From positions 1 through 41,144 of the forward strand of contig CAZYAW010000105.1 in assembly GCA_964646045.1 (NCBI GenBank): DNA of 41,144 nucleotides, given 5' to 3'. The notes below the pieces were generated by a model. It made no database searches. It was not told where the DNA came from and saw only the letters and a list, made by a program, of their open reading frames with translations. Below are positions 14,807-38,313 of this stretch, piece after piece. A program made the position numbers and the translations under genes. Each line of letters starts with the position of its first letter. Within the stretch, counting starts at the first letter, position 1. The stretch is from an uncultured Victivallales bacterium (lineage in GTDB: Bacteria > Verrucomicrobiota > Kiritimatiellia > UBA8416 > SLMC01).

Positions 14807-17865
<3,059 letters not shown>

Positions 17866-17890
17866 GGGGGAATCCTCGTTATAAATGACT

Positions 17891-19744: not shown

Positions 19745-19933
19745 ATGTTTCGGACGGATTGGGTTGGCCGGGGACTATTCCCGACCGTCGGCGCCGTTGC
19801 GATGACACGACAACTTGCGTGCGTTGGCTCGACTTCGGGAACCCATTGGCGGAGAGGCTGGAACCGGTCTGAACGGCGGACTGCTTCCGAAAAGACGAGC
19901 GGGCCGCACCCCGGCGCCACCACGAGATTATGA
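19745..19933 (+). CDS. Candidate 62-aa small ORF at the head of the envelope operon (speculative)
   Basis: ATG is preceded by GAAGGGGAG at 6-nt spacing, and the stop TGA overlaps the ATG of the next gene (ATGA). Third-position GC looks lower than in neighbouring genes, so coding status is uncertain. Confidence 0.25.
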   Translation: MFRTDWVGRGLFPTVGAVAMTRQLACVGSTSGTHWRRGWNRSERRTASEKTSGPHPGATTRL

Positions 19934-20805
19934 AGGTCGACGACAGCGAATTATGGATCTGGCGGCATTTCGCCGTCCGATTGCCCCGCGACTGGGAGAT
20001 GCTGCAGTTTTCCTGCAACGCTCGCACCGGCCGCTGCGCCTTTGCCGATCGGTATGCGTTTCGTTTCGAGCTGAGCTGGAACCGTGTGCCGGGTCCGCCC
20101 GACGTGGACCGCATGTTGTCCGATTACGCGGCGGAACTCATGCGGGACGGAGAAAGCCGTCCGCGCCGCGTCCGTCGCGCGGAGTGGTATGGTCTTGAAA
20201 TCAGGAACGGTCCCGAGTCCGCATCCCGCTACGGATGTTATATCGGCGATCATGGCTACCTGTTGGAGGCCGTGTTTCCATGGCCGAGTCGCGTGGACCG
20301 GCCTCTGGCGCACGCCGTTCTCGACAGCATACACGTGGAGACCGCGAATGCGGACGGATTCCGGCGCTGGCGCGCTTTCGGCATGGAAGTGCTGGCGCCG
20401 CCGGGGCTGGATCTGCAGTCCTGTCGCGTGTTGCCGGCGCAGGCCGAGATGGTGTTTGCGGACAAGCGGAGCCGACGCGAGTTGCGGGTGGAGCGTCTGG
20501 GCATGGTTTCCGAATGGCTGCGGGGCTCGCCGACCGACTGGGTCAAGAAGACCGCGCCGCCGCATATGGCGGAGGCGCCGGCGTGCGTTACGCAAAGGAA
20601 CGGACACGATATTGTCCGCCTGATCGGCAAATCGCGTGGCCTGCCGGGACGGCGGCGAGCGGTCGACGAACGGTGCGGCTGGCGCTGTCCGGAAAGCGGT
20701 CGTCTGTTCGGGCTGAGCGTAAAGGGCATGCCGGCGCCGTCGCCATCGCGGACGGCCTGGGCGGACTGCGTGGGTTGTTGCGCGGTCCGGAGCGCGGCGT
20801 TATGA
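19930..20805 (+). CDS. Hypothetical soluble protein with an internal tandem duplication
   Basis: 291 aa with no TM segments. The two halves share a W..F...L.P......S......FAD+....EL...R pattern (aa ~8-50 versus ~146-190). Its stop overlaps the next start (ATGA). Confidence 0.6.
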   Translation: MKVDDSELWIWRHFAVRLPRDWEMLQFSCNARTGRCAFADRYAFRFELSWNRVPGPPDVDRMLSDYAAELMRDGESRPRRVRRAEWYGLEIRNGPESASRYGCYIGDHGYLLEAVFPWPSRVDRPLAHAVLDSIHVETANADGFRRWRAFGMEVLAPPGLDLQSCRVLPAQAEMVFADKRSRRELRVERLGMVSEWLRGSPTDWVKKTAPPHMAEAPACVTQRNGHDIVRLIGKSRGLPGRRRAVDERCGWRCPESGRLFGLSVKGMPAPSPSRTAWADCVGCCAVRSAAL

Positions 20806-21185
20806 CGCGACCGGCGCAGCGCATGCAGGCCGACTGGCGTCGGATGCTGGACGCCGCGCCGCTCCGCAACCGCGCGGCGGCCGTGAAAACCGACGGCAAC
20901 GGCGAGCGGAGCATAACGGTGCCGCGCGAGCGGCCGTGGTGGCTGCGCATACCGCTCGTGGGGTGGGCCGTGGCCGTGGGGGAGAAACGTACGTTGAGAC
21001 TGGATCGGCTCGGTAGCGAAGTGTGGGACCTTTGCGACGGCCAACGGACGGTCGAGGGGATTGTCGATGATTTTGCGCAACGTCACCGCCTGACATTTCA
21101 CGAGGCTCGGGCGGCGGTGACGGTATACTTGAAGACGCTGGTTCAGCGCGGCGCGCTGGCGCTCGAGATGCCGGAGGAAAATTGA
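20802..21185 (+). CDS. PqqD-family (RiPP-recognition-element-like) small protein
   Basis: The C-terminal ~70 aa (LDRLGSEVWDLCDGQRTVEGIVDDFAQRHRLTFHEARAAVTVYLKTLVQRGALAL) match the PqqD winged-helix pattern. It is coupled at both ends by 4-nt overlaps. Confidence 0.7.
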   Translation: MTRPAQRMQADWRRMLDAAPLRNRAAAVKTDGNGERSITVPRERPWWLRIPLVGWAVAVGEKRTLRLDRLGSEVWDLCDGQRTVEGIVDDFAQRHRLTFHEARAAVTVYLKTLVQRGALALEMPEEN

Positions 21186-22669
21186 GCAAAGCTCCAATTC
21201 AGATTGCCGATCAGCCGCGGCTGTCGCTGCGGCGTATCGCCCATATCACGATGGACGGCATTCGCTATCGCGTATTCCGGTGCGCCGTGACGGTGGCGGT
21301 CATCGCCGTTGCCGTCGCCTTTCTGAACAACATCGTGAGCGAGAGCATCGTGAGACGGTCGGTAGGGACCGTTGCCCGACTGCGGCTGCGGCAGGGACGT
21401 CAGGTTCACGAATGGGCGGCACGGCTCACTGCGGCGGGAACGTCGGCCGACCTCCTAAAAGAGGTGGCCGACAGCCGGCCGGGCGATCGCGTCTATCGCG
21501 AGTGCGCCGGCTTTGGACGGTTCGGCGCCGCGGCGATGGCGTCTTTCCACCGCGCGGCCCGCACGGCCGTCGGCTATCTCTCCTTCTTCGAAGACCTGGA
21601 CTACGATCTGCGACGCCGACTGGTGCATACGGATCCCGGTGCGGCCGTTCTCGATCGCCTGGCGACGCCGTCCGGCATGGAGCGCTTCCGCCGCGCCCTG
21701 AACGAGATCAGGGCCGTTCGCTTCGTGTCGTCGCTCGACGCGTTGCAGCAGTTTCTGGACGAACGGTGGCTGCCGTTGAGGCAGGACGCGGAGCGTATTC
21801 TCGCGGGCCGGCGCGCGGCGATTCAGGACGTTGCTCGCGCACGGGCCGGGGTTTCCGTTATCGAGTCTCTCTCGCGCGCGGACGGCGCGTTCGGCGATAC
21901 GATCCGGGGGGCCGGATTCGAGTTCGACTCCGAACGGGTGGCCCCGGCCGTGGCGCGACAGGCCCGCGACCTGCTGGCCATGCGCCGCGTGGAGCAGACG
22001 ATCGAAGCCCAGAGCGTGCGCCGGCTGCTTTCGCGCGACGCCAGAGTCGCCCCGTCGGACGTCACGACCGTGCATCTGTGGCGTTTTCTGCGCAATCGCG
22101 CCCATGCGCGCGCGCTGCTGGCGGAAGAGGCCGAGAGCGTGTCGTCGCTCAAAAAAGTCCTGGAAGAGGACGACCTGGTCGCGCTCTCGGATCGGCGCAG
22201 AGAGGAGCGCGCGCTGACGCGTATCGGACGCGATACCGCCGGTGTCGGAACCGGCTGGCTCGGCATGGGAGAGCGCATCGGGTGGCTGATCGCCGTTTCG
22301 ATGCTGGTGTGCGGAATCGGTATTGCCAATGCCATGCTGGTGAGCGTGACGGAGCGTTTTCGCGAGATCGCCACCCTGAAGTGTCTGGGGGCACTGGACG
22401 GATTCATCCTGCTGCTGTTTGTGATGGAAAGCTGTCTGCTCGGCCTTGCGGGCGGCTTGCTGGGGGCGTTTCTGGGCAGTCTGATCGGCGCAGGCCGGGC
22501 GCTCTGGGAATTCGGTTTCTTTTTGCCGGGCGGCCTGCCGATCGGCGATCTTCTTCTGGGAATGGCTCTGTCGGTCGGCGCGGGAATGGCGCTGGCCGCT
22601 CTGGCCGCGGTATATCCGGCGTTCAAGGCCTCGCGCCTGGCGCCCATGGAGGCCATGCGCATTGACTGA
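21182..22669 (+). CDS. FtsX-family (MacB/LolCE-type) ABC permease with an atypical ~320-aa helical loop domain
   Basis: TM1 is at aa ~34-52. The C-terminal FtsX module reads IANAMLVSVTERFREIATLKCLGA...AAVYPAFKASRLAPMEAMR. The TTG start overlaps the upstream stop, and ATG 21251 is an alternative. Confidence 0.8.
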   Translation: MSKAPIQIADQPRLSLRRIAHITMDGIRYRVFRCAVTVAVIAVAVAFLNNIVSESIVRRSVGTVARLRLRQGRQVHEWAARLTAAGTSADLLKEVADSRPGDRVYRECAGFGRFGAAAMASFHRAARTAVGYLSFFEDLDYDLRRRLVHTDPGAAVLDRLATPSGMERFRRALNEIRAVRFVSSLDALQQFLDERWLPLRQDAERILAGRRAAIQDVARARAGVSVIESLSRADGAFGDTIRGAGFEFDSERVAPAVARQARDLLAMRRVEQTIEAQSVRRLLSRDARVAPSDVTTVHLWRFLRNRAHARALLAEEAESVSSLKKVLEEDDLVALSDRRREERALTRIGRDTAGVGTGWLGMGERIGWLIAVSMLVCGIGIANAMLVSVTERFREIATLKCLGALDGFILLLFVMESCLLGLAGGLLGAFLGSLIGAGRALWEFGFFLPGGLPIGDLLLGMALSVGAGMALAALAAVYPAFKASRLAPMEAMRID

Positions 22670-23414
22670 AACGACGACCATGGAACGCATCATCGTGCGA
22701 ACGATCGATCTCAAGAAGGAGTACGTCATGAAGGGCGTGCTCACGCCCGCTTTGCGCGGGGTGGATCTGGAGATCGCGACGGGCGAGTTCATGGCCGTGA
22801 TGGGACCGTCGGGTTCGGGCAAGAGCACGTTCTTCAACATGATCGGCGCGCTGGATCGGCCGACATCGGGTCGCGTGTTCATCGACGAGGTCGACGTGGC
22901 TCAGCTCACGGCCGAGGAACTGGCCTACGTTCGCTGTCAGAAGATCGGCTACATCTTTCAGACGTACAATCTGATCCCCTACATGACGGCGATCGAGAAC
23001 GTCTCCATCCCCATGGCTTTCGGCGGCGTACCGCCCGACGACGCGCGCGACCGCGGCATGGCGCTGCTGGACCTCGTCGGTCTCAAGGAGCGCTGGTTTC
23101 ATCGTCCGATCGAAATGTCGGGCGGTCAGCAGCAGCGTGTGGCGATCGCCCGTTCCCTGGCCAACGAACCGACCGTTCTGCTGTGCGACGAACCAACGGC
23201 AAACCTGGATCTTGCGACGGGCCGGGAGATTCTGGACATTCTCCAGCGCCTGAACACCGAGCGCGGCGTCACGATTGTCTGCGCCACGCACGATCATCGC
23301 GTCATGAAGATCTGCGACCGTTTGCTGTGGATTCGGGACGGCCGCGTTTCACGACTGGCCAAGCGGAGCGAATTGCGCATTGAGGCCGGATCCATCGGGG
23401 GGGTGGCGGAATGA
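22662..23414 (+). CDS. ABC transporter ATP-binding protein (MacB/LolD/FtsE-type), copy 1
   Basis: [51 protein letters not shown] 22662 is preceded by GGAGG at 9 nt, and ATG 22680 is an alternative. Confidence 0.88.
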   Translation: MTETTTMERIIVRTIDLKKEYVMKGVLTPALRGVDLEIATGEFMAVMGPSGSGKSTFFNMIGALDRPTSGRVFIDEVDVAQLTAEELAYVRCQKIGYIFQTYNLIPYMTAIENVSIPMAFGGVPPDDARDRGMALLDLVGLKERWFHRPIEMSGGQQQRVAIARSLANEPTVLLCDEPTANLDLATGREILDILQRLNTERGVTIVCATHDHRVMKICDRLLWIRDGRVSRLAKRSELRIEAGSIGGVAE

Positions 23415-26400
23415 TGGCAACAGGGAACATCCGGCCGGCGGGGTCGTTCGCCGGCGCGATGCTCGCGGGCCTTCTGTGTCTGGCGGCCGCCGACGCGCGC
23501 GGCGAGCGTTTTCTCGACGACTGCCGCGCTCTGACCGCCGCGCCGCATCGCTTGACGGGCACGGAAGAAGGTCGGGCGGCCGGCGACTACATCCGGGGCC
23601 GCCTGGAGGAGGCGGGGGTGGACCGTGTCCTGGTACAGCCGTTTGCGGTGCCGCAGTGGCGGGTCGAACAATGTTCGCTGACGATGGACGGCGAAGCCGG
23701 AGCGCTGTCGCTGCATCCGTTGCGGGCCAATGGCATTGTGCCCCCCGTGACGCCGCCCGAGGGCCTCGCCGGTCCCGTTGTGCATGCGGGGAACGGATCG
23801 GCGGCCGCCGTGGCGGGCAAGAATTTGCGGGGCTCCATCGTGGTGATGGACTACGACTGCGAAGAGGCGTGGCTGCACGTTTTCCGTCAGGGCGCGGCGG
23901 CCGTCGTATTCGTGCGCGCCGGACCCGCTCGCGCTCAGCAGCGGCTGCATGTGCTGGCCAACGCCAATCTGCCGCGCTTCTTTTACGACGGAGCGGCGTC
24001 GGACCTGACCGAAGGCGGGCGCGCCACCATTCACAGCCGCATTGTTTGGGAGAACAGCGTGGGGCGCAATATTGTCGGCTGGGTGCGCGGCTCCGCGCCG
24101 GAGTTCGGGCAGGACGCGGAAGAAGCGCTCGTGCTGGCCGTTCCGTACGACAGTTTCGGCGAAGTGCCCGGGCGCAGTCCCGGCGCGCGCGGGGCCGCCA
24201 ACTGCGCCGCGCTTCTGCGCCTGGCCGGTCGTCTGTCGGCGCAGCGACCCCGACGGCACGTGCTGCTGCTTTTCCTGGACGGACAGGCCCGCTACCATGC
24301 CGGGGCCCGGGCGTTGGTCCGCGCGTTGGAACCGGTCGACAGCGCCGCCGGTCTGCCGGCGCGTCAGGGCTGGTATCGCAGCGAAGTGGAATTTCTTGAC
24401 GAGATGGAACGGCTGCTCGCGCTCGCGCATCCTTTTCGCGAAAGTTCCGACGCGCGTCGCTCTCTGCTGCAGTCCCTCTCGACTCGGGCCAAGGAACAGG
24501 CCACACTGGTCGCGGACGCCATGTACCGACTGCGTGAAGAAAAGAGAGATTTACGGAACCGGGAGGGAGACGGCGCCGGGGCGGGGGAGGCGGTCCGGGA
24601 TCGCCTGACGCGGATCGACACATTGCTGGCAGAGACATGGCAGCCGCAGCGGGACGCCTGGAGCAACGTTCAGCGCGCGCTGGGTCGGAGCCGACAGGGG
24701 CGCGCCCGCGACGAGACCGGCTCTCTTTCGGCGGCCGAGCAGGCCCTGTTGGACGGGATCGTGCAGGACCAGCGCGCGGAGATCGGCGCTCGTCGGGCCG
24801 AACTCGCGATTACCGGCCGGAACCTGGCGGCCGATGCCGAGATACAGGAACTGCTCGGGAAGCGCGCGATCGTGCTGTATGCCTCTCTTTTGCTGGGAGA
24901 CCGCTCGCCCGCATGGGGCCTGGCCATCGGCGGCGACTCCGGATTGCACTCGGAAAACGATCATCCGGGACTGTACGGACAGATACAGGCCGTCTTCCTG
25001 GAGGCCTTCCAGCGTCTCGCCGCCGCCGACGCTGCGGCGTCGGGATTTGTCCGCCAATCCGCCGACCAGTCTCTCGATCGTACCCGCATGATGTGGGGGG
25101 CGCCCTACATGGTTCATGGCGGCGAGGTGGCGGGTTTGCTGGGCGTCTACAATGTGGCGCTGGTCACGTGCGGAGAGAATATGGAGCGCGAGGGTACCCC
25201 GGACGATGTCCTGGAGGCTCTCGACATCGCGCGGCTGCGGGCGCAGGCGGACGATATCGGGCGCCTGCTCTTCGGCGGCGCGGGGACGCATGCCGTGGCT
25301 AGTCAGGAGCGCCTCTCGCTGCGGCGCGGCGTCAATCCCAGCGCGGGATACAGCCTGGCGCGTTTTGAAAACGGTCGCGTGGTCGGTCCGCGGGTCATGG
25401 GCGCGCTGCCGGGCAGCGCCATGCCCAACCAGCCCGTCCCCGGCGCCATGCTGCAGGTCTTCGCCACGCCGCCGGCCAGTCTGACCTTCCAGACCGCCCA
25501 CCCCTATGCCTTTGAGAATTTCATGGTGTTGCGGACGGATCAGCGCGGGGCGTACAGTCTGGGGCCGCTGGCGGCGCAGCCCTCGCACTTGCGCAACAGA
25601 CTGCGCGCCGTGACCCTCGCCTTCGATGCGCAGGGGGTTCTCGCGTCCGCTTCCGGGCTCAACGAGGAAATCGGGCGCGTCTGGTACCGGATGAACACGT
25701 TCTATTGCCAGTCCGGCGAACAGATTCTGCCGGTCCAGTCGGAAACGCGCCGCCGGTCGAGCGGGGACATCCTCCTGATGTCGGCGCGCAACAACGTCAA
25801 CATCGATCCCGCGCGACATTTCGTCGAAGCCCTGGACGGCGTGGTCGGCTGGTTCTGCGACGACCGGGAGAAGGGGATCAAGCTGTTCGGGTTGTCCCGC
25901 ATGGTCGCGCTGAACAACGGTCCGGCGACCCTGGCTTCCGACCGGCGCGAAACGAACGAAGAAGCCCTGCGGCAAGCCGCCGGAACCGGTTTCCCGCAGG
26001 ACGCGGACTGGCGCGACATTCAGCCGTCCGTCCGCTCCGCAGCGGATTTGTGGCGTTTGAACGACGCGCGGATCGGATTGCTGCGCAGTCGGCAAATCCG
26101 CGACCGCTCCCTGGCCGAACTGCATGCGCGCAGCGAAGACCTCCTGTTGGGCGCGGCGGCGACGACGGATCCGGGGCGTCGCACGGCGCTCGCCGCCGGC
26201 AGCTTTCTGTCGTCCGCGCCGGTGTACAGGGCGACCCGCAAGACGCTGGACGATCTGGTCTTCGCGGTGCTCCTGCTGCTGGGACTCTCCGTGCCCTTCG
26301 CCTTTGCCATGGAACGGGTGCTGGTGGGGGCGCGCACGATCTACCGGCAGATCGTCTGGTTCGGATTGTTTTTCCTGGCCACCTTCACTTTGCTTTATCT

Positions 26401-28312
26401 CGCGCACCCGGCCTTCGCCGTGGCCAATACGCCCATGATCATCTTCCTGGGTTTCACCATTGTCGTGATGTCGGCGCTGGTCATCGGCGTCATCATGCGC
26501 AAGTTCGAGGCGGAACTGCGCGCTCTGCAGGGGTTGTCGTCCAGCGCGCACAGCGCCGACGTGTCCCGGGTGACGACCTTTCTGGCCGCCATGCAGATGG
26601 GGATTTCCACCATGCGGCGGCGTCCTCTGCGTACGGCCCTGACCGCCACCACGGTGACTCTCCTGACGTTTACGATTCTTTGTTTTGCCTCTTTCGCGAC
26701 CCAATTGGGCATTGTCCGTTTTTTCGTCGGGTCGTCTCCGTCGTATGAAGCGGTCTGGATTCGCAGCGCCAGTTGGCAGCCGATCAGCCGGGATTTTGCG
26801 GTCATGCTGCGCGACCGGTGGAACGCCGCAGTCGTTGCGGAACGGTACTGGCTGTCTCCGCGCAACGAGGAACGCGCGGGCGTTCTGCTAACGCGCGAGG
26901 ACGGCACAAGGCCCCTGGCCCTGCGCGGCGTGCTCGGCCTGGATCCGCGCGAAATCGGCCGACGCAAAGATCTGGCCGAGATCTTCGATACGAACCTGGT
27001 CGGACGCGTACTCCTGACCGACACGGTGGCGCACGCGCTGGGCGTACGCGAAGGCGATACGGTGCTGGCGGGCGGTGAACGGCTTGTCGTCGGCCGCCCG
27101 TTCGATCCGGTCAAGGCGTCGGTGGTCGTGGATATGGACGACAGCAGCGTGCTGCCGGTCGATTTTCTTGCCGCCTCGTCCTCGTCCGCACAGGCCGCGC
27201 AAAGCGACGAAAGCGACATGGACGAAACGACGGCCGATTCCAATTGGTCCAATTTGTCTCCGGATTTCGTATTGGTAGTGGACACGGCGACCGCCCGGCG
27301 ACTCGGCGCCGCACTGCAGGCCGTGACGATGTATGCCGAGGGCGAAGCGCAGGCGGCGGAGATGGCCGACGACATCGCGCGCATGGCGACCTTCCCGGTG
27401 GCCGTTACCCTGCGCAACGGCGTCTATCGACAGCGCCTCGGCGTGATGCTGGCGGCCAGCGGCGCCAAGGACCTCTTTTTCCCCATTCTGCTGGGCGGGC
27501 TCGTCGTGTTCGGCACCATGTTGGCGTCCGTCGCCGACCGCGAGCGCGAGATTTACACGTTCAGTTCGCTGGGTCTGGCGCCGCGGCACGTCGCTTCGCT
27601 GTTTTTCTCCGAAGCCACGGTCTACGCCGTGATCGGCGGGATGGGCGGATACCTGATCGCCCAGGCCATGTTGAAAATCCTGACGATTCTGTCCGATCAC
27701 GGCCTGGCCAGGGTGCCGGAAATGAACATGTCTTCGACCAATACCATTGTCACGATTCTGATTGTCATGGCCACGGTTCTGGTTTCCGCCGTCTATCCCG
27801 GGATCAAGGCGTCGCGGTCGGCGAATCCCGGCCTCATGCGTTCCTGGCGTCTGCCCGAGTTGCGGGGCGACGAACTGGAATTCGTCTTTCCCTTCACGGT
27901 CTCGCAGTACGACATTACGGGCGTGGTCAGTTTTCTCCGGGAGCACTTTCAGAACCACGCCGACACGGGCATGGGCCGCTTCATGGCCGAGCATCTCCGC
28001 ATTACGCGCTCGTCCGAGGGCGAATTGGGCTTCGCCGCGGACGTTATGCTGGCGCCGTTCGATCTGGGGGTCGGTCAGTCGTTTGCGCTGACAAGCATTC
28101 CGAGCGGCATTCCCGGCATCGACGAGGTTCGGCTGGTCTTGCGCCGCCGATCCGGACAGCCGCGCGACTGGCATCGCCTCAACAAGGCTTTCATGAACGA
28201 TCTGCGCCGGCAGTTTCTGCTGTGGCGATCCTTGCCGCGCGAAACCATGGATCTGTATCGGCAGCAGACGCTGCAGGAACTGGGAGCAATGAGGACGGCG
28301 TCCGTTTCTTGA
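23411..28312 (+). CDS. 1633-aa fusion: signal/anchor, PA plus degenerate M28 peptidase-like ectodomain, unknown ectodomain, 3 TM, FtsX-type permease module, C-terminal cytosolic domain
   Basis: ATGA-coupled to the upstream ATPase.
- N-terminus: hydrophobic AMLAGLLCLAAADA.
- PA-like segment: GSIVVMDYDCEEAWLHVFRQGAAAVVFV.
- M28-like core: NIVGWVRG...VLAVPYDS...PGARGAANC...LLLFLDGQARYHAG.
- Three TM segments at aa ~948-1030.
- FtsX module: MRRRPLRTALTATTVTLLTFTIL, a ~250-aa loop, then ADREREIYTFSSLGLAP...VSAVYPGIKASRSANPG. Confidence 0.85.
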   Translation: MMATGNIRPAGSFAGAMLAGLLCLAAADARGERFLDDCRALTAAPHRLTGTEEGRAAGDYIRGRLEEAGVDRVLVQPFAVPQWRVEQCSLTMDGEAGALSLHPLRANGIVPPVTPPEGLAGPVVHAGNGSAAAVAGKNLRGSIVVMDYDCEEAWLHVFRQGAAAVVFVRAGPARAQQRLHVLANANLPRFFYDGAASDLTEGGRATIHSRIVWENSVGRNIVGWVRGSAPEFGQDAEEALVLAVPYDSFGEVPGRSPGARGAANCAALLRLAGRLSAQRPRRHVLLLFLDGQARYHAGARALVRALEPVDSAAGLPARQGWYRSEVEFLDEMERLLALAHPFRESSDARRSLLQSLSTRAKEQATLVADAMYRLREEKRDLRNREGDGAGAGEAVRDRLTRIDTLLAETWQPQRDAWSNVQRALGRSRQGRARDETGSLSAAEQALLDGIVQDQRAEIGARRAELAITGRNLAADAEIQELLGKRAIVLYASLLLGDRSPAWGLAIGGDSGLHSENDHPGLYGQIQAVFLEAFQRLAAADAAASGFVRQSADQSLDRTRMMWGAPYMVHGGEVAGLLGVYNVALVTCGENMEREGTPDDVLEALDIARLRAQADDIGRLLFGGAGTHAVASQERLSLRRGVNPSAGYSLARFENGRVVGPRVMGALPGSAMPNQPVPGAMLQVFATPPASLTFQTAHPYAFENFMVLRTDQRGAYSLGPLAAQPSHLRNRLRAVTLAFDAQGVLASASGLNEEIGRVWYRMNTFYCQSGEQILPVQSETRRRSSGDILLMSARNNVNIDPARHFVEALDGVVGWFCDDREKGIKLFGLSRMVALNNGPATLASDRRETNEEALRQAAGTGFPQDADWRDIQPSVRSAADLWRLNDARIGLLRSRQIRDRSLAELHARSEDLLLGAAATTDPGRRTALAAGSFLSSAPVYRATRKTLDDLVFAVLLLLGLSVPFAFAMERVLVGARTIYRQIVWFGLFFLATFTLLYLAHPAFAVANTPMIIFLGFTIVVMSALVIGVIMRKFEAELRALQGLSSSAHSADVSRVTTFLAAMQMGISTMRRRPLRTALTATTVTLLTFTILCFASFATQLGIVRFFVGSSPSYEAVWIRSASWQPISRDFAVMLRDRWNAAVVAERYWLSPRNEERAGVLLTREDGTRPLALRGVLGLDPREIGRRKDLAEIFDTNLVGRVLLTDTVAHALGVREGDTVLAGGERLVVGRPFDPVKASVVVDMDDSSVLPVDFLAASSSSAQAAQSDESDMDETTADSNWSNLSPDFVLVVDTATARRLGAALQAVTMYAEGEAQAAEMADDIARMATFPVAVTLRNGVYRQRLGVMLAASGAKDLFFPILLGGLVVFGTMLASVADREREIYTFSSLGLAPRHVASLFFSEATVYAVIGGMGGYLIAQAMLKILTILSDHGLARVPEMNMSSTNTIVTILIVMATVLVSAVYPGIKASRSANPGLMRSWRLPELRGDELEFVFPFTVSQYDITGVVSFLREHFQNHADTGMGRFMAEHLRITRSSEGELGFAADVMLAPFDLGVGQSFALTSIPSGIPGIDEVRLVLRRRSGQPRDWHRLNKAFMNDLRRQFLLWRSLPRETMDLYRQQTLQELGAMRTASVS

Positions 28313-28358
28313 GAACCCTGTAAGCGGCGGGCGCTACAACGCAGAGGGAACCGACGGT

Positions 28359-30389
28359 ATGTCACGCAACCAACGACACGACATCGACAAGGAACTGCAG
28401 ACGTTTCGGGACGCGATGCAGGTGCCTTCCACCTTCGAGGAGGGTTTCCGCTGGTCCTCGCTGCTGGGAGCGCTGTTCGTGGCGCTGGTCATGGTGCCCG
28501 GAGCGATCTACATGGGATTGCTGGCCGGGGTCGGCATCGGTCCGGCGGCCCAATGGGTCACGGTGATCCTTTTTATCGAAGTCGCGCGCCGCGCGCACCG
28601 ACACCTCTCCAAGTCCGAGATCTTCGTCCTCTACTTCATGGCCGGGGCCATGATGACCGGTCTCGGGATCGGCGTGGACGGCGGACGCATGAACGGCTTG
28701 CTCTGGCGGCAGTATTTTGCCGTCAGCGACGCGGCCCGCTCCTCCGGCATCACCGAGCAATTGCCGGCATGGTACGCGCCGAGTCCCGAATCGGATTCCT
28801 ATGCCCTTCGTTCGTTCCTGCATCCCGCGTGGATGGCGCCGATCGGCCTGCTCGTCTTCGGCACTTTTTTCGGCCAACTGGCCAACCTCGTACTGGGCTA
28901 TGGTCTCTTTCGCGTGACGAGCGACATCGAAAAATTGCCCTTCCCGATGGCGCCGGTGGGGGCTCAGGGCATCCTGGCGGTGGCCGAAGACGTCGAGGAG
29001 AGAACGCGCAAGGACAGCGAACGCTCCTGGCGCTGGCGCGTGTTCGGCATCGGCGGAGCGCTGGGTCTGGTTTTCGGGGCGGTCTACCTGCTTCTGCCGA
29101 CGCTGACGGGCGCCCTGACGACGGCGTCCGTCCAGATCTTCCCCATACCGTTCTCCGATTTCACGCATCAGACCGGGCATTACCTGCCGGCGGTCGCGAC
29201 CGGCATCTCCTGGGATTTCGGGCATCTCGTTTTCGGCATGGTCATGCCTTTCTTCGGCATGCTGGGCAGTTTCATCGGCTTGCTCGTCACGGTGGTGGCC
29301 AACCCCGTCCTGTACGAGGTCGGGTTGCTCAACTCGTGGACCTCGGGGGACGACACCGTCTGGACCATCTTCAAGAACAACGTCGATTTCTACTTCAGCT
29401 TCCAGATCGGCATCGGGCTCGCCATCGCGCTGGTCGGCGTCTATCAGGTCCTGCGGAGCATCCGCCGCGCGAAGGCGAAGAAGAGAGCGGGGAGCATCAT
29501 GGCGCCGCCGCCGGGGCGCGGCGACATCCGGGGAATCTTCGTGGTCCTGTGCTACTTCGTTGTGACCGCCATCTATATCTCGGCGTCTCTGGCTCTGCTC
29601 GTGTGGGACGAGGGGGAGTGGAACGACAACGTCCAGCGGGTTTTCTACGTGCTGCTGGGGCTCGGCCTGGTCTATACGCCGTTGATCAGCTACGTCACGG
29701 CGCGCCTCGAGGGCATGGTCGGCCAGGTGGTGGAAATCCCCATGATCCGCGAGGGGGCCATGATTCTGAGCGGCTACCGCGGCGTGGCCTGCTGGTTCCT
29801 GCCGCTGCCGGTCGCCAACTACGGCCACATGACCGTCTTCTACCGGCAGTGCGAGCTTACCGGCACGAAGTTCACCAGTATCTGGAAGACGAAAGTGATC
29901 CTGTATCCGATCATCCTGATCAGCTCCATCATGTTCATGAACTTCATCTGGAAACTCGACCAGATTCCTTCGTCCGCCTATCCCTATGCCCAGAAGATGT
30001 GGAAACTGCAGGCCGCCAACGAGTGCATTATGCTGTCCTCGACGCTGGGCGACTACTCCATGTTCGAGGAGGCCTTCAACTGGATGTATCTGGGCGCGGG
30101 CACGGTCTTCGGCGGCCTGCTTTTCGGACTGTTGAGCGCGTGCGGGGCGCCGGTCATGCTGGTTTACGGGATTGTGCGCGGTCTGGGACAAAGCATGCCC
30201 CACGCGATCATCCCCCAGTTCATCGGGGCGCTGATCGGACGGTTCTATTTCCAAAAACGGCTCGGTCTGAAATGGCGACAGTATATTCCGGTCGTGGCCG
30301 CGGGATTCTCCTGCGGCATGGGCCTGATTACCACGTTGGGGGTCGGGATCACGTTCCTGAGCAAGGCCGTGATCAAGCTGCCCTTCTGA
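28359..30389 (+). CDS. 676-aa polytopic membrane protein, distantly OPT-superfamily-like
   Basis: At least 14 hydrophobic segments. An EKLPFP motif (aa 191-196) and the C-terminal FIGALIGRFY...YIPVVAAGFSCGMG resemble OPT-type motifs and the two paralogs downstream. GAGGGA lies upstream of the ATG. Confidence 0.7.
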   Translation: MSRNQRHDIDKELQTFRDAMQVPSTFEEGFRWSSLLGALFVALVMVPGAIYMGLLAGVGIGPAAQWVTVILFIEVARRAHRHLSKSEIFVLYFMAGAMMTGLGIGVDGGRMNGLLWRQYFAVSDAARSSGITEQLPAWYAPSPESDSYALRSFLHPAWMAPIGLLVFGTFFGQLANLVLGYGLFRVTSDIEKLPFPMAPVGAQGILAVAEDVEERTRKDSERSWRWRVFGIGGALGLVFGAVYLLLPTLTGALTTASVQIFPIPFSDFTHQTGHYLPAVATGISWDFGHLVFGMVMPFFGMLGSFIGLLVTVVANPVLYEVGLLNSWTSGDDTVWTIFKNNVDFYFSFQIGIGLAIALVGVYQVLRSIRRAKAKKRAGSIMAPPPGRGDIRGIFVVLCYFVVTAIYISASLALLVWDEGEWNDNVQRVFYVLLGLGLVYTPLISYVTARLEGMVGQVVEIPMIREGAMILSGYRGVACWFLPLPVANYGHMTVFYRQCELTGTKFTSIWKTKVILYPIILISSIMFMNFIWKLDQIPSSAYPYAQKMWKLQAANECIMLSSTLGDYSMFEEAFNWMYLGAGTVFGGLLFGLLSACGAPVMLVYGIVRGLGQSMPHAIIPQFIGALIGRFYFQKRLGLKWRQYIPVVAAGFSCGMGLITTLGVGITFLSKAVIKLPF

Positions 30390-30403
30390 AGAGACACGAC
30401 GCT

Positions 30404-31135
30404 ATGCAAGACACTCTGGTACAGGTGCGCGATCTGAGCAAGACCTTTCGGCTGCGCGGCGAGGTTTTGCACGCGCTCAAGAACATCGAACTGGATATTT
30501 ACACGGGCGAGTACCTGTCCATCATGGGGCCGTCCGGCTCGGGCAAGAGCACCCTCTTCAACATGATCGGCGGTCTGGACCATCCGTCGGAGGGTTTCGT
30601 CGAGGTGGCCGGAATCCGGCTGGGCGACTTGAGGCCCCGGCAACTGGCGTACTTGCGCGGCAACGAAATCGGCTACGTTTTTCAGTCCTACAACCTGTTG
30701 CCGGCCTACGGGGCGCTGATGAACGTCTGTATGCCGCTGCTCTTCAGCGGACAGACGCCCCAGGCGGCCGAACGCCGGGCCACGGAAGTCCTGGAGCGGG
30801 TCGGGCTGGGCGATCGCATCGACCACCGGCCCGACGAGCTGTCCGGCGGACAGCAGCAGCGCGTGGCCATCGCGCGCGCGCTGGCCAATTCCCCGTCCAT
30901 TATTCTGGCCGACGAACCGACGGCCAATCTCGACCTGGAAACCGGCCGGCAGATCATCGACCTGCTGGCTTCGCTGTCGAGCGAGTTCGGCGTAACCGTT
31001 ATCAGCGCCACGCACGATCACCAGATGCTGGCCGCATCCGACCGCATCCTGTGGATTAAGGACGGCGCCGTGGACCGTCTGGAACGTCGCGAAGATCTGG
31101 ACATCCAGGTCGGAGTGATCGAGGACGAAGTCTAA
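30404..31135 (+). CDS. ABC transporter ATP-binding protein (MacB/LolD/FtsE-type), copy 2
   Basis: [54 protein letters not shown] 30404 lies 14 nt after the upstream stop. The 860-aa track ORF is a shadow upstream of this point. Confidence 0.88.
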
Positions 31136-33567
31136 CCGAGAAACACTTTGTACCGTACGGGCGTCTGGCCCGTGGCCCAGTAGTAGACCGCGCCGCTGGC
31201 CGCGACCAGGATGCCGGCGATCATTTCTCCGGCGATCAGTCCGAAGATCAACGGCTTCATGTTGCGGCATAGCCGCCAGCCCCCGTAGCGTTCCGCCACC
31301 GTCTTGACCAGCGCGCCCGCCAGAAAGGACGCCGACAAGCTCAAGGCGTCGTTGGTGCCCAACACCAGAAACATGAGCGGGTGCAGCGGCCATCCCGGAA
31401 AGCGCCGTCGGCACCAGGTGAAAACGAAGACGAGCGTCATGGCGACGGCAAAGGCCGCGACATATTCGCGGCGCGGCGCCAGGGCGCGCAGACCGCCCAG
31501 TTTCCCGGCCTGCGCGGCGCCCAGTTGTCCCTGCGACGCCAGCAGACGCCGCACCGCCACGTCGTTTTCGTAGGGGGCGGTTGGAACGCGGTCGACGATC
31601 CATTCGTCGCCCGTGCGCATGGTGCCGTAGTTGTACTGCCAGTACAGGGTGGCCGCCGCCGCGACCACCAGAGCGACGCCCACGGCGACGGTGCCGCTCA
31701 ACGCGATTTTGCCGGGCCGCACGCCTTTGCTCTCGCAGAGCCGCAAGGCGCTGAAGGCCAGGCCCATGACCATTTCCCTGTAGGTGATGAGCAGCATCGA
31801 CGACAAAATGCCCATGATCAGCAGGCGGTCCGGTCCGACGGCCTCGGCGCCCAGCAAGCCCCACAGCAGGGCGCCGGTGTACCAGCTCGATTGGGTTGTG
31901 AATACGCCGCCCTCCGCCAGGAGCCGGCTGACTACCGTGGAGATCACGACGGCGCCGGCCGCGTACAGGATGCCCAGCCACAACGGCAGGCCGACCCCGT
32001 GCAGGATCAGGACAAAGGCGGCCAAGCCGACGATAAACACCCGAGATCCCCATATCTCGTGCGGACGAACCTCGTCCATGGCGCGCGTCAGTCCGAGGGC
32101 GCGCGCGAACACGGCGCGCAAATGGCGGTGCGCCGCGGCAAACAGCGCGATAAACATGGCCACGTAGGCGCCCGCGTGCAGGGAGGGCTGAATGCCGGGA
32201 CTGAACGTTCCGTATCCCGCGCTGATGTCGACCCCGTACCGAGTGACCAGAGTGCCGACGACGGCCCAGTAGAGCCAGGGCGCGACGCCGACCGAAAAAG
32301 AGATGTCGCGCGACAGCAGGTAGGCGAACCCGAAGGCCGCAAAACCGATGCGCGGCACGAACAGCCGCTGACCCGGCCCGGAACTCAGAGCCGGGAACAG
32401 ATCCTTCAGGGCTCGCAGGTCGGCATAGGTGCGGACGGGAATCAGCGTGCCGGGCCACCACTCTGCCAGGTAGTTGTTTAGATGGATCGCGAGCACGACG
32501 CCCATGCCCGCCAGAAACCAGCGGGAACGGAGCGTGGCGGGCAGACCGCCCCCTTCGCCGGGCAGGATTTCGGTCAGGAACTGTACCGTCGGGTAGGGGA
32601 GTCGTTCGTGTTCGACCCACTGCCGGTGCAGCACCAGGGCCAGTCCGATCACGGCGATCGACAAGGTCAGGACGAGGGGCATCCAGAACGACCAGGGCCG
32701 TATCCAGGACGAGAAAGGGACGTTTTGCGGCGCAATATTCTCGTTTCCTTCCCGCATGCCGACCACGAAGGGGTCCAGTACGGTCGAGGCGTTTCGGGAA
32801 TCGACATCCGTCAGCATGCGTCGCGGCGCGCTCTCCACGGGTCCCGGGCGTCGCGCTTCGACGGCGCCGCCGGCCAGCAAGTCCAGGACGCCGCGGTTGA
32901 GTCGCACGCGCTCGTCCGGATCGAGGTCCGACAACCGGCGCGCCATGAGTTGCCGCATGTACGAGGGCAGATACATCTTGTCGTGCCGTACGGCGGACTG
33001 CCAGTCGACGGGCTCCCGCAGGAAGGCATTGACCCCCTGGCAGATCCGTCTGCGGTGGTCCTCGCGGTCGGCCCGCTCTTCCGCGTCTTGTTCGAGCGTG
33101 ACGCGCAGTTCGGCGGGCAGATGCTTCCATAACAGTACGGCGGTCGCGCTCGCATCCGGCCGGCGTCCGCGGCCGAGGGTCGCGGTCAGCGCGGCCCAGT
33201 CGCGCACTTGATTCGGCGACAGTTCCGCGGCCGTCCCTTTCCAGGCCGGTCGCAGGCGGGCGTAGTGCTGCGGCATGATCATGATGTTGTTAAAGAAATG
33301 CATCAGACCGCGTCCCGGCACAAAACAAGAAAAGAGGGTGATTCCGGCGGCGACGGCCAATTCCGGCGCCGAGAACGCCAGTCGCCGTTTCAGTCTGGCC
33401 AGCAGGGGATTGAGGATCAGTACGAAGAGCGCCAGCGTTCCGAAGACGGCGAAGGGCGCAAAATTGCCGGTCATCTCGCTGCTCAGCATCACTTTGTCGT
33501 TGAAAAAAGTGAACAGAGCCAGGAACAATGCGCCCGCAAATCCCAGCGTCAGCGATCGCCATGTCAT
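31132..33567 (-). CDS. 811-aa polytopic membrane protein, paralog of 33608-35644 (OPT-like; possibly the DUF6785/DUF6784 type)
   Basis: N-terminal TFFNDKVM, then LVLHRQWVEHERLPYPTVQF, then C-terminal KPLIFGLIAGEMIAGILVA. AGGAG lies 9 nt upstream of the ATG. The DUF names are recalled from memory, not verified. Confidence 0.75.
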   Translation of the reverse strand: MTWRSLTLGFAGALFLALFTFFNDKVMLSSEMTGNFAPFAVFGTLALFVLILNPLLARLKRRLAFSAPELAVAAGITLFSCFVPGRGLMHFFNNIMIMPQHYARLRPAWKGTAAELSPNQVRDWAALTATLGRGRRPDASATAVLLWKHLPAELRVTLEQDAEERADREDHRRRICQGVNAFLREPVDWQSAVRHDKMYLPSYMRQLMARRLSDLDPDERVRLNRGVLDLLAGGAVEARRPGPVESAPRRMLTDVDSRNASTVLDPFVVGMREGNENIAPQNVPFSSWIRPWSFWMPLVLTLSIAVIGLALVLHRQWVEHERLPYPTVQFLTEILPGEGGGLPATLRSRWFLAGMGVVLAIHLNNYLAEWWPGTLIPVRTYADLRALKDLFPALSSGPGQRLFVPRIGFAAFGFAYLLSRDISFSVGVAPWLYWAVVGTLVTRYGVDISAGYGTFSPGIQPSLHAGAYVAMFIALFAAAHRHLRAVFARALGLTRAMDEVRPHEIWGSRVFIVGLAAFVLILHGVGLPLWLGILYAAGAVVISTVVSRLLAEGGVFTTQSSWYTGALLWGLLGAEAVGPDRLLIMGILSSMLLITYREMVMGLAFSALRLCESKGVRPGKIALSGTVAVGVALVVAAAATLYWQYNYGTMRTGDEWIVDRVPTAPYENDVAVRRLLASQGQLGAAQAGKLGGLRALAPRREYVAAFAVAMTLVFVFTWCRRRFPGWPLHPLMFLVLGTNDALSLSASFLAGALVKTVAERYGGWRLCRNMKPLIFGLIAGEMIAGILVAASGAVYYWATGQTPVRYKVFLG

Positions 33568-33607
33568 AGTTTACGACTCCTACATTGCGGATCGGGCGCC
33601 GTTGACG

Positions 33608-35644
33608 CTACGGCGGCAAAACCCAGAAGTTTGTCAGCGTCTCTCCCGTGACGAAAAAGTGAACGGCGCCGATCATGCTGGGAAGAATCGCGCCGAGCAC
33701 TTCGCCCGCGATGAATCCGAACATCAGAGGCTTCAGGCGGTTGACCAGGGCCGAACCGCCGTAACGGTCGACGGCCAGCTTGACCAGCCATCCCAGCAGA
33801 AAGCTCGGAGCCGTGCGCTGGAGCGGAACGGTCGCGCACGTAACCATCAGGATGGGATGCAGGGGCCACCATGGCAAACGGAGTCGCGCCGCCGCGAGTC
33901 CGGCGGCTCCGATCAGACCGATGAACAAGGCCCAGCCACAGGACGGTTCCATCCGTATGCGGCTCACGTTCGACCCGCTCGGCGGTTGCATGGCTTGTTC
34001 CAGCTCGCCGCGGGCCTCGAGCTGCTGCTTGACCGCCGCGGCATTGTTGAGCGCAAAAGTGGGCACGTGCTGTTGCGTCCAAGTGTCCGCGACGGAGCTG
34101 CCCTGATCGTAGTGCAGGTACAGGGTCACGGGCAGGGCGACGGTTACGCAGACCACCAGGGCCACGGCGCACCAGACCGCAACGCGGCCGGGCGCGACGC
34201 GGTGCAGATCGAGCAATTTCCAGTTGTTGACGAGGAACGGCATCAGCGACTCGCGAGGGTCTATGAAGAGGACCGTGGAAACCATCTGAATCGCGACCAG
34301 CGTCGGCAGGCCGATGGCGCCGACGCCGAACAGGCCCCAGAGGGCGGCGCAGGGCCACACGAAAGGCTGCATATAGAACAAGCCGGCTTCGCTGATCAGC
34401 CGCCCCATGACCGTGTACAGAAGCATGAGCAGAAGGACGTACAATACGGCCATCGGCCAGGACACGCCGGCCAAACGGAGCTGCAGCGCCAGGACGAGGC
34501 TCATGACCAGGAACAGCCGGGCTCCCCAGGTTTCGTAAGGGGGAACGTCCGGATGGCCTCCGGGCCGCAAGGCATGGCCGAAAACCTGCCGGTAGTGGTG
34601 GCGCCCGGAATATACCAGCGCCCCGAACAAGCCCAGATTGCCGCCCAGTAGAAGGAACTGTCTCGGCTGGGGCGACAGGTAGTTGCCGGTCCCGATATTC
34701 GAGGTTTCGACCTGAATGCCGTAGGTCAGCAGCGCCCCGACCGCTACGGCGTACAGAAAGGGCCCGATCCCCAGCGAAAACGACACGTCTTTGGGAATCA
34801 TAAACGCGATCGCGACGACCGTAAAATAGAGAACCGGAGACAGCAGTTGCCGTCCCAGATGCGTATCCAGCGCCGGAATCAGTTCGCGGAAGGCCTGCAA
34901 ATTGAATTGGCGCTTAATCTCAATCACGTATTCGGGGAATGTCCCCGCCGCGAAGCGGCTCATATGCACCAGAAAGACGAGCGTCAGACCGGTCCAGAAC
35001 AGCCGGCTGCGCAGGACCGGGCTCCAGCGGCCGCTTTCGTCCGGGAAAAGGCTGTTGGTGAACGCGACGATCGGGTAGGGCAGATGTTCGTGGCGCGACC
35101 ATTGTCGGTGCAGCACGAGCGAAAGGCCGATCACGGCCAGCCACGTCGCCAGGAAAATCGGCAGCCAGAAGGCGACGGCGCGCGTCCACGCGCGCCACGG
35201 CACGTCGCGGAAGGAAATGGCTTCCGGCCCCGTGCGAAGCCCCTGGCGAAAGCCGTCCAGCACGCGGTTTTCGTCTTCCGACACGTCGGCCAGCATCCGG
35301 TCGGGGACCATCTCCATGACCTCCTGGCTGCGCCAGCTCGCATAGATGCGGTTGTAGTGCTGCGGCTGGATGAGCGACGTGCCGAAAGCGCGCATCATGC
35401 TGGAACCGGGAATACAGCAGGCGGCGAGAACGATGGCAAGCGCGACCGCGATTTCGGGACCGCGCAAGGCATGCCGTCCGAGCAGCGGCGCGGCCAGCAC
35501 GTACAGCAGCAGCATCCCGAACACCACGATCGGCATGTTGTTGCCGATCAGATGGGTCTGGTGCATCACATGGTCGTTAAAGAACGTTACGGCGGCGACG
35601 ATCACAACGCCTATTAAACCGAGAATGACGCTTCGCTTTGTCAT
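33608..35644 (-). CDS. 678-aa polytopic membrane protein, paralog of 31132-33567
   Basis: Colinear motifs TFFNDHVM, LVLHRQWSRHEHLPYPIVAF and KPLMFGFIAGEVLGAILPS. It lies 40 nt upstream of its paralog on the same strand. Confidence 0.75.
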   Translation of the reverse strand: MTKRSVILGLIGVVIVAAVTFFNDHVMHQTHLIGNNMPIVVFGMLLLYVLAAPLLGRHALRGPEIAVALAIVLAACCIPGSSMMRAFGTSLIQPQHYNRIYASWRSQEVMEMVPDRMLADVSEDENRVLDGFRQGLRTGPEAISFRDVPWRAWTRAVAFWLPIFLATWLAVIGLSLVLHRQWSRHEHLPYPIVAFTNSLFPDESGRWSPVLRSRLFWTGLTLVFLVHMSRFAAGTFPEYVIEIKRQFNLQAFRELIPALDTHLGRQLLSPVLYFTVVAIAFMIPKDVSFSLGIGPFLYAVAVGALLTYGIQVETSNIGTGNYLSPQPRQFLLLGGNLGLFGALVYSGRHHYRQVFGHALRPGGHPDVPPYETWGARLFLVMSLVLALQLRLAGVSWPMAVLYVLLLMLLYTVMGRLISEAGLFYMQPFVWPCAALWGLFGVGAIGLPTLVAIQMVSTVLFIDPRESLMPFLVNNWKLLDLHRVAPGRVAVWCAVALVVCVTVALPVTLYLHYDQGSSVADTWTQQHVPTFALNNAAAVKQQLEARGELEQAMQPPSGSNVSRIRMEPSCGWALFIGLIGAAGLAAARLRLPWWPLHPILMVTCATVPLQRTAPSFLLGWLVKLAVDRYGGSALVNRLKPLMFGFIAGEVLGAILPSMIGAVHFFVTGETLTNFWVLPP

Positions 35645-38192: not shown

Positions 38193-38294
38193 ATGCTTCT
38201 GGACAGCAACATCATCATTTATGCGGCCCAACCCGGAGCCGTTGCGCTCCAAAACCATATTGCTTCGCGAGACGTCTTTATCCATTGTCTGTAG
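38193..38294 (+). pseudogene. Truncated PIN-domain (VapC-like) toxin, 33 codons
   Basis: MLLDSNIIIYAAQPGAV... is a typical VapC N-terminus with the first acidic residue. The frame stops after 33 aa, against an expected ~130 aa, about 20 nt before repeat copy A. Confidence 0.55.
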
Positions 38295-38313
38295 CCTGGC
38301 GCGGACATTCGCA

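Follow-up and report, generated by a model that had tools for sequence, protein, structure and literature searches.

The window analysed in this study is a stretch of 41,144 nucleotides from an uncultured Victivallales bacterium (contig CAZYAW010000105.1 of assembly GCA_964646045.1), and its subject is a compact locus of nine genes, A to I, at positions 19930 to 35644. The locus encodes an ATP-binding cassette (ABC)-type system of type VII with an unprecedented set of partners, each of which belongs to or resembles known families. The ancestral gene order is DUF6785-A-B-C-D-E-F-G, a conserved eight-gene module composed of a seven-gene core and one DUF6785 gene. The two convergent DUF6785 paralogues of the window (H and I) are a local rearrangement of this module, since the DUF6785 gene is usually the first of the operon in other lineages and sometimes lies elsewhere. 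The module is read tentatively, at somewhat less than even confidence, as one multi-subunit inner-membrane machine that uses ATP to handle a cargo of peptides or polypeptides, with outward movement favoured over import. The genes were called from the listing of open reading frames (ORFs) and from third-position GC, and are given below with the lengths of their products in amino acids (aa).

Gene A, 19930-20805, plus strand: 291 aa; no sequence family; AlphaFold2 model of two tandem domains
Gene B, 20802-21185, plus strand: 127 aa; Pfam PqqD
Gene C, 21182-22669, plus strand: 495 aa; Pfam FtsX, type VII ABC permease
Gene D, 22680 (or 22662)-23414, plus strand: 244 (or 250) aa; MacB/LolD-type ABC ATPase
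Gene E, 23411-28312, plus strand: 1633 aa; FtsX and a predicted dead M28-type head; signature protein
Gene F, 28359-30389, plus strand: 676 aa; polytopic, divergent OPT-superfamily protein
Gene G, 30404-31135, plus strand: 243 aa; second MacB/LolD-type ABC ATPase
Gene H, 31132-33567, minus strand: 811 aa; polytopic DUF6785+DUF6784 protein, long form
Gene I, 33608-35644, minus strand: 678 aa; polytopic DUF6785+DUF6784 protein, short form
Non-coding leader, 19396-19929, plus strand: 534 nucleotides upstream of gene A, containing the ORF 19745-19933

The conservation of the module was studied by two scans. In the first, species-representative genomes were queried with E, which gave 34 loci, and the genes were then placed by tblastn. 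Genes A-B-C-D-E-F-G were colinear on a single strand in essentially all sufficiently long contigs of this set. In the second, an alignment of F was searched against species-representative genomes, and an F-type gene was found at no fewer than 596 confirmed loci. Taxa were named from the best 80 of these at least 596 loci, by the labels of metagenome-assembled genomes (MAGs), which are possibly imprecise. They were Lentisphaerota, Kiritimatiellota, Verrucomicrobiota and Planctomycetota (Phycisphaerae), and also Omnitrophota, Fibrobacterota/Chitinivibrionales and Polyangiales. The isolates Oligosphaera ethanolica DSM 24202 (NZ_JAUSVL010000001.1, with the locus at about 4.21-4.23 Mb) and Verrucomicrobia bacterium LW23 also possessed the module.

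The arrangement of the genes was counted over 108 unique related loci, the denominators being subsets of these. E was immediately 5' of F in 75/75 loci, F and G were adjacent in 87 of 88, and the order C-D-E-F was present in 67/69. Among the same number of loci (69), the run A-B-C-D-E-F occurred in 43 and a DUF6785 gene lay inside the locus in 40. Moreover, the order DUF6785-A-PqqD-FtsX-ABC-E-F-ABC was kept at only about 35% identity of E (Phycisphaeraceae and others). A MAG labelled Sumerlaeia had the order PqqD-DUF6785-FtsX-ABC-E-F, and in one assembly the DUF6785 gene was on a separate contig from the module. In the gene-neighbourhood check named by the original prediction, an earlier reading of this DNA, synteny was strong over about 100 independent contigs of several phyla, and refutation by non-synteny fails. 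The same genes in the same order across so many contigs and phyla point to more than chance clustering. All-against-all clustering of every ORF in the related loci indicated that only the A to G and DUF6785 families recur; no membrane-fusion protein, outer-membrane factor, precursor peptide, radical-SAM or other modifying enzyme, or hydrolase was conserved. A search of plasmids with F gave no match. The original prediction had also stated that the locus has no characterised counterpart, and nothing matching was found in the NCBIfam equivalog models, PADLOC or the full-text literature.

Copies outside the usual arrangement were also seen. The assembly GCA_016235825.1 has an A-G module (L080) and, apart from that module, a lone DUF6785/DUF6784 gene (L199), whose neighbours are a gene of glycoside hydrolase family 4 and a cluster for a bacterial microcompartment. 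The MAG of Phycisphaerae bacterium SM23_33 contained two separate E-F-G loci (L069 and L093), which shows that one genome can hold the module twice.

The gene set proposed earlier for the window was real and compact, and its domain calls were reproduced with Pfam and NCBIfam, the exceptions being MacB_PCD and PA, for which none of the window proteins gave a Pfam match. The junctions were recomputed and the earlier coordinates were exact. A and B overlap in ATGA (20802-20805), B and C in TTGA (21182-21185), and D and E in ATGA (23411-23414). The stop of C is at 22667-22669, and D starts either at TTG 22662, with an overlap of 8 nucleotides, or at ATG 22680, with a gap of 11. The intergenic gaps are 46 nucleotides between E and F and 14 between F and G, and the convergent ends of G (TAA) and H (TAG) overlap in CTAA (31132-31135). 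An optional eighth plus-strand gene with an overlap at 19930 had been proposed as well, and this did not hold. Its ORF (19745-19933, 62 aa), considered as a first gene or precursor, had no Pfam family, and its conservation by tblastn and blastn was 0 in the 34 related loci. The plus-strand operon therefore has seven genes, and the first real overlap is at 20802.

The ABC parts of the module are C, D, G and a portion of E. Two MacB/LolD-type ATPases and two FtsX-type permeases, one of them the 1633-aa protein, had been predicted, and the Pfam matches to ABC_tran (D and G) and FtsX (C and E) confirmed them. The FtsX matches were 1.9e-14 (54 bits, residues 370-485) for C and 3.6e-11 (44 bits) for E, both above the cut-off. 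By hydropathy, C has a first transmembrane (TM) segment, a periplasmic part of about 315 aa (residues 53-368) and then the FtsX helices TM2-4. The PDB sequence matches of C, namely MacB, LolC, LolF and YtrF, spanned TM2-4 only. The FtsX unit of E consists of TM5, a second ectodomain of about 240 aa (residues 1108-1345) and TM6-8, again by hydropathy. The ABC_tran matches were 1e-31 for D and 2.2e-34 for G. The best NCBIfam relatives were LolD, DarD, FtsE and MacB for D, and LolD, MacB and YbbA for G, all under the equivalog cut-off. In the translations of both ATPases the Walker A, signature, Walker B and H-loop motifs were intact; D and G were about 50% identical to each other, and D was 58-79% identical across phyla. 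The marks of a type VII ABC system were thus found together: FtsX TM2-4, a large extracytoplasmic domain (in C and E) and cognate intact ATPases. The earlier reading of the FtsX/MacB parts as mechanotransmitters was in agreement with known systems of this type, in which cytoplasmic ATP turnover moves periplasmic domains and not a solute across the membrane, as in the precedents YbbAP-TesA, LolCDE, FtsEX-EnvC and MacAB (PMC12646458).

The topology of E might be read as that of a duplicated permease like YbbP/ADOP, and this was rejected by hhalign, which found a single FtsX unit and no second repeat. Residues 1335-1475 of E aligned with TM2-4 of C at 97% probability, whereas residues 925-1045 reached only 0.1% against 1335-1475 and 0.05% against TM2-4 of C. 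Residual co-variation in a mirror-tree comparison was 0.66 for C-E, 0.53 for C-G, 0.47 for E-D and 0.14 for F-G, values which are weak hints without a significance test. The presence of one FtsX unit in each of C and E, the two distinct ATPases, the lolCDE-like order C-D-E and the co-variation together suggest that C, E, D and G may form one LolCDE-like heteromeric engine, which is at least as likely as two ABC systems. The two separate systems implied by the original prediction were not demonstrated, given the single FtsX unit detected in E and the likeness of C-D-E to the lolCDE order.

The same relatives bring in a function like that of LolCDE or YbbAP-TesA, in which a lipid-anchored or hydrophobic molecule would be pulled from the inner membrane and passed to the E head or a partner in the periplasm. 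Among named proteins, D and G come closest to LolD and YbbA, and C and E to LolC, LolE and MacB; C-D-E is moreover the order of lolC-lolD-lolE. In addition, Lnt and SecA are encoded 2-7 kb upstream of the module in the window, and a type VII system that feeds a periplasmic enzyme has a precedent (PMC12646458). However, the Lol and YbbA scores were far under the equivalog cut-offs: for the lolCE model C reached 34.5 bits against 362, and for LolD the values were 213 (D) and 230 bits (G) against 308. No LolA-like or other periplasmic partner was conserved among the ORFs of the related loci, the Lnt/SecA neighbourhood was not conserved in other loci, and known lipid extractors do not include PqqD, tandem PsbP-like or OPT-like proteins. 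Extraction is therefore considered a rather improbable function.

The signature protein E possesses eight TM segments by hydropathy. Its N-terminal part is ordered as TM1, an ectodomain of about 920 aa and three TM helices without detectable FtsX similarity, and its C-terminus is a conserved cytoplasmic domain of about 160 aa (about 1470-1633), for which the PDB sequence search was empty. The AlphaFold2 model of residues 1-1040 had a predicted local distance difference test score (pLDDT) of 90.5 and a predicted template modelling score (pTM) of 0.87. In this model an M28-type fold (about 52-310 and 486-625) is interrupted by a three-helix coiled coil (315-482), and is followed by a beta-rich region (645-835) and by long stalk helices which lead into the next TM segment. 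In the E homologues L012, L013, L014, L022 and L048, the alignment fell into two pieces about 220-430 nucleotides apart, near residue 340-350. This split is located at the start of the coiled-coil insert, indicating that the length of the insert varies between lineages.

The Pfam match of E to Peptidase_M28 was weak (18 bits, cut-off 21.3), and the fold was recovered by more sensitive comparisons. The Foldseek search matched the head to the PA-containing M28 aminopeptidases, with 2ek8 at 1e-16 and BSAP and PaAP besides, and to the transferrin receptor and PSMA at E values of about 1e-13. The family profile of E matched the aminopeptidase 2ek8 at 4e-12, nicastrin at 4.5e-6 and nicalin at 0.006. 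Compared with 2ek8, the M28 motifs of E were changed from HHDS to aanlDs, from NDDASG to gArgAAn, and from AEEN to dnqa. These first three metal-ligand or catalytic motifs were replaced in all 32 of the 32 E homologues, and the position which we take, from the M28 motif, to be that of the last His ligand was an invariant Gly (G595). Near the lost ligands, D247, R260, N264, R282, D290, R593 and D599 were invariant or nearly so. The conserved polar residues around the replaced ligands argue for a conserved binding pocket. Accordingly to these alignments and the model, the head of E is predicted to be a catalytically dead M28-type receptor or binding domain, similar to those of nicastrin and the transferrin receptor, and not an enzyme. 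For the M28 part of E in the original prediction, this means that the fold stands by Foldseek and profile, and that peptidase activity does not, with the metal ligands and catalytic positions replaced. Residues 645-950 of E (window 25343-26260) also gave a chance-level Pfam match to a NOMO1-like beta-sandwich (E 0.19). NOMO works with nicalin in the BOS complex of eukaryotes, and the pairing of the two among the matches of E is probably a coincidence.

A dead peptidase domain joined to a coiled coil also recalls the control of wall remodelling by FtsEX-EnvC. In such a function the head and coiled coil of E would switch a hydrolase encoded elsewhere, and the OPT-like proteins would import muropeptides. 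The arrangement in E parallels that of the EnvC coiled coil and dead LytM domain on FtsEX (PMC12646458, PMC11491553), and a fungal OPT protein takes up peptidoglycan fragments (PMC12284242). We regard this function as improbable, because M28 is unrelated to LytM/M23, no hydrolase was conserved nearby among the ORFs of the related loci, and A and B would have no role that it explains. Furthermore, the scores were far under the cut-offs, with C at about 24.5 bits against 225-255 for the FtsX models, and D and G at 195 and 200 bits against 265 for the FtsE model.

Residues 953-1516 of E (window 26267-27958) matched the PADLOC model PDLC01991, 'CARF_m8--CARF_LolE_TM', at 1.1e-52 (177 bits), and the core of E also matched PDLC01990, 'CARF_Beta-galactosidase_LolE_TM' (1791 model positions). 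These matches indicate that a family of candidate CRISPR-ancillary membrane proteins shares the 7-TM core of E. A CARF sensor in E itself was not supported, since the match was confined to 953-1516 and the C-terminal domain alone had no match. The PADLOC result is the evidence for a role as an anti-phage defence or CRISPR-ancillary membrane effector. This role is hardly credible, because only the TM and second-ectodomain core of E is covered, A, B, F, H and I had no PADLOC matches, and neither cas nor defence genes were seen beside the module, which is flanked by housekeeping genes and has an order that is stable across phyla.

The remaining membrane proteins are F, H and I. F has at least 12 hydrophobic segments and was 52-73% identical across phyla; it is the most conserved membrane subunit and, with the ATPases, the best-conserved component of the module. 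Its match to Pfam OPT covered profile positions 477-616 only, in the C-terminal part. Many F orthologues carry PF03169 and have the NCBI names 'OPT/YSL family transporter' and 'peptide transporter'. H matched DUF6785 at 4.8e-63 (213.8 bits) and DUF6784 at 2.3e-17 (63.4 bits), and I matched the same families at 5.5e-72 (243.3 bits) and 7.7e-17 (61.8 bits), all above the cut-off. The two are paralogues with 36% identity, and H has a soluble insert of about 150-200 aa past the third hydrophobic segment. The DUF6785 family, taken from I at E<=1e-3, comprised 2412 clusters at 50% identity, and neither DUF6785 nor DUF6784 was mentioned in the full-text literature searched. F gave no signal with H and I in pairwise BLAST or when shallow profiles were compared, and the PDB sequence search was empty for F and I. 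The motif E-[KRH]-L-P-[FY]-P follows a hydrophobic segment in both the F and the H/I families, and the shallower comparison aligned on this motif. The comparison of the F family with the I family by hhalign had an E value of 2.3e-5 over 183 columns. Three OPT-like polytopic proteins had been predicted earlier. Of these, F was a borderline case (25.3 bits, cut-off 25.8), and H and I were weakly linked to the superfamily, by the hhalign probability of 76% and by one match to OPT (0.0023) among 36 DUF6785 family members, I included.

The membership of the OPT family favours import, and the strongest rival to the proposed function is the uptake of nutrient peptides. In this case F and the DUF6785 proteins would be proton-driven oligopeptide importers, the ABC part and the E head would capture periplasmic peptides or feed them to these importers, and A and B would receive the peptides in the cytoplasm. 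The NCBI names of the F orthologues are in line with such a role, the head of E resembles the transferrin receptor and PSMA, which are uptake or processing receptors, and the characterised OPT members are importers (PMC3061005). However, no import by type VII ABC systems is known, the inactive M28 domain would generate no peptides, and F is more rigidly conserved across phyla than is usual for a permease that scavenges. Nor would this function explain the strict operon coupling to two ATPases and to A and B. Nutrient uptake is thus judged to be unlikely.

A and B are probably cytoplasmic proteins, as neither has a hydrophobic segment by hydropathy. A has no family in Pfam or NCBIfam, and the PDB sequence search gave only a marginal unrelated match (E 0.027). 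Its AlphaFold2 model (pLDDT 94.5, pTM 0.89) has two tandem domains, in agreement with the duplicated-domain soluble protein described earlier. The fold matched PsbP and BT_1490 in Foldseek with a probability of 1.0 and SciW (Eag) with 0.92-0.97, and DcrB and Mog1 were matched as well; the target-normalised TM-score of each domain was at most 0.57 against the PDB matches. The model thus assigns A to the tandem PsbP/Mog1/DcrB/Eag (SciW; DUF1795)-like fold. Eag/SciW chaperones hold the hydrophobic helices of secreted effectors. The 167 homologues of A were all named hypothetical. Two proteins (P0197 and P0222, about 430 aa each) are fusions of A with PqqD, which supports the view that A and B act together. 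In the homologue listing and the clustering of related-locus ORFs, A and B were found only with this module. No homology was found among A, the C-terminal, second-ectodomain and beta-rich domains of E, and the periplasmic domain of C.

B matched Pfam PqqD at 3.7e-11 (43.6 bits, cut-off 23.4), and its family alignment was conserved throughout. It also had weak matches to four PqqD-chaperone models of NCBIfam, all under the cut-off. On this evidence B is assigned as a bona fide PqqD-family protein of the peptide-binding type, that is, of the type of the recognition element (RRE) of ribosomally synthesised and post-translationally modified peptides (RiPPs). A cluster for RiPP maturation and export would have the RRE bind a precursor, the M28 domain remove the leader and the ABC part export the product. 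Besides the PqqD domain, the resemblance of D to DarD, the ATPase of the darobactin exporter (5e-60, under the cut-off), is consistent with it. This explanation is very unlikely and has been largely refuted, since no precursor, radical-SAM enzyme, YcaO, lasso cyclase or other modifying enzyme was conserved in the ORFs of the related loci, the ORF at 19745 was not conserved and the M28 domain is predicted to be dead. Moreover, the neighbours are chromosomal housekeeping genes, there was no plasmid copy, and a fixed order over at least 596 loci across phyla is unlike natural-product clusters.

In the machine proposed here for peptide or polypeptide cargo, C and the single FtsX unit of E would be the permease halves and D and G the two ATPases, in a heteromer like LolC-LolD-LolE. 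Binding and hydrolysis of ATP would shift three periplasmic parts, namely the domain of C (about 315 aa) and, in E, both the second ectodomain and the head (about 920 aa). A route through the membrane or along it would be provided by F and the DUF6785 protein, which are OPT-superfamily-like. In the cytoplasm, A and B, as binding modules without a catalytic signature, would keep hold of a peptide segment of the cargo. What we infer in this scheme is which subunits pair, what the cargo is and which way it moves. The peptide theme comes from the PqqD domain of B, the A-B fusions, the Eag/SciW-like fold of A and the OPT domain of the F orthologues. With regard to direction, we lean with low confidence to outward transfer, from the cytoplasm to the envelope, since adaptors of RRE and Eag-like type are present and every known type VII system works outward.

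Several points weigh against the scheme. A and B were missed by tblastn in about one third of the long-enough loci, which might be due to divergence or to true absence. The clustering of ORFs revealed no conserved cargo gene in or near the module, so that the peptide handling of the original prediction is still an inferred role, for which the families of B, F and the E head speak. To our knowledge, all characterised OPT transporters are importers. In addition, the E head, judged from its sequence, cannot cleave anything. The periplasmic parts of C and E had no Pfam match, and Porter/Sabre (MacB_PCD) domains were undetected by sequence. Finally, the four ABC parts may be paired in another way, as homodimeric C2D2 and E2G2.

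An extended form of the proposal is a previously unrecognised pathway of polypeptide translocation or extraction, in which a type VII engine would be mechanically coupled to OPT-fold channels, with a nicastrin-like periplasmic gatekeeper and PqqD/Eag-like adaptors. Its cargo, encoded elsewhere, may consist of small proteins, of hydrophobic segments or of tagged substrates. Such a pathway is a speculative and unlikely reading; if true, it would be common to Planctomycetes-Verrucomicrobia-Chlamydiae (PVC) bacteria, Polyangiales, Fibrobacterota and Omnitrophota.

The DNA around the module was also inspected. The leader is unusually long (534 nucleotides) and not conserved in the related loci. Rfam gave nothing at the gathering threshold and chance-level matches only at E<=1, and a riboswitch or other RNA element was rejected because no Rfam family was found. 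A sigma-70-like promoter site at 19568-19597 is a consensus match only. The upstream flank encodes the housekeeping proteins Lnt, SecA, a metallophosphoesterase and IspD, and the downstream flank YchF and a glutathione peroxidase. The SecA protein shared 79% identity with its counterpart in a Kiritimatiellae MAG, which places the source of the window within the Kiritimatiellia. The Lnt and SecA ORFs (12926-17994, minus strand) overlap by about 650 nucleotides as listed; the true start of Lnt is almost certainly further downstream, and its Pfam match starts only at ORF residue 256. In the region 38000-41144, the GC content falls from about 0.64 to 0.53-0.58 and a gene of a DUF4143/AAA_14 ATPase is located at 39546-40796, so this region is possibly a small acquired island.

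Type VII ABC systems comprise a small set of well-studied machines with differing envelope jobs, namely Lol, MacAB, FtsEX, Bce and YbbAP. The partners that are new here are the predicted dead M28-type receptor head, the OPT-like channels and the PqqD and PsbP-like adaptors. Many of the carriers are important polysaccharide degraders of the gut, rumen and sediment with almost no genetics. Finding the job of the module would assign a function to eight families, DUF6785 and DUF6784 among them, and would reveal how a bacterial membrane motor uses a pseudo-peptidase. Furthermore, the module offers a test of whether OPT-fold proteins cooperate with an ABC engine.

Compared with LolCDE, the module has the same order of permease, ATPase and permease (C-D-E), a LolD-like ATPase, and 4-TM FtsX units with a large periplasmic domain between helices 1 and 2, so mechanotransmission would be expected rather than pumping. 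It differs from LolCDE in scoring far under the LolC, LolD and LolE cut-offs, in having two different ATPases, and in the extra module of E with four TM segments and a receptor of 920 aa. It also has no Porter/Sabre domain detected by sequence and no LolA partner, and its OPT-like, PqqD and PsbP-like partners are obligatory. Unlike MacAB-TolC, no adjacent HlyD/MacA or outer-membrane-factor gene recurs in the ORFs of the related loci.

The soluble and polytopic partners have known relatives of their own. B has the same domain as the PqqD/RRE chaperones, while the module is without RiPP enzymes or a precursor. The domains of A have the fold of the Eag/SciW (DUF1795) chaperones; no type VI secretion genes were seen in the locus, and A is without family membership. 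F is similar to the OPT/YSL transporters (PF03169; TC 2.A.67) in being polytopic with about 680 aa and in the match of its C-terminal third, and its orthologues pass the Pfam threshold. F of the window, however, was just under the gathering cut-off, and H and I were only remotely linked. We know of no characterised OPT transporter which is operonic with ABC ATPases.

The closest parallels to E are found among systems with a periplasmic module of a hydrolase or peptidase fold. YbbAP-TesA of E. coli (PMC12646458) likewise combines a large single-chain permease with a hydrolase-fold periplasmic module on the permease, and G matched YbbA at 6e-60, under the cut-off. In contrast, YbbP has a true internal duplication, with 10 TM segments and two Porter/Sabre domains, whereas a single FtsX unit is detectable in E; TesA is an active protein of its own, and the corresponding module of E is fused and predicted to be inactive. 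FtsEX-EnvC has an FtsX-type engine with a coiled coil and a dead peptidase-fold domain as regulator, as E may have. However, EnvC stands as a protein of its own and has a LytM (M23) fold, while the dead domain of E is fused and M28-type, and the module is without a known amidase partner and scores under the FtsE and FtsX cut-offs. Nicastrin and nicalin, of the gamma-secretase and BOS complexes, the transferrin receptor and PSMA share with E a membrane-anchored M28-type ectodomain, and in nicastrin, nicalin and the transferrin receptor the metal ligands are lost as in E. E has no presenilin-like or TMEM147-like partner. It differs from this group in its coiled-coil insert of about 170 aa and its extra beta-rich domains, and in that it is bacterial and fused to an ABC permease.

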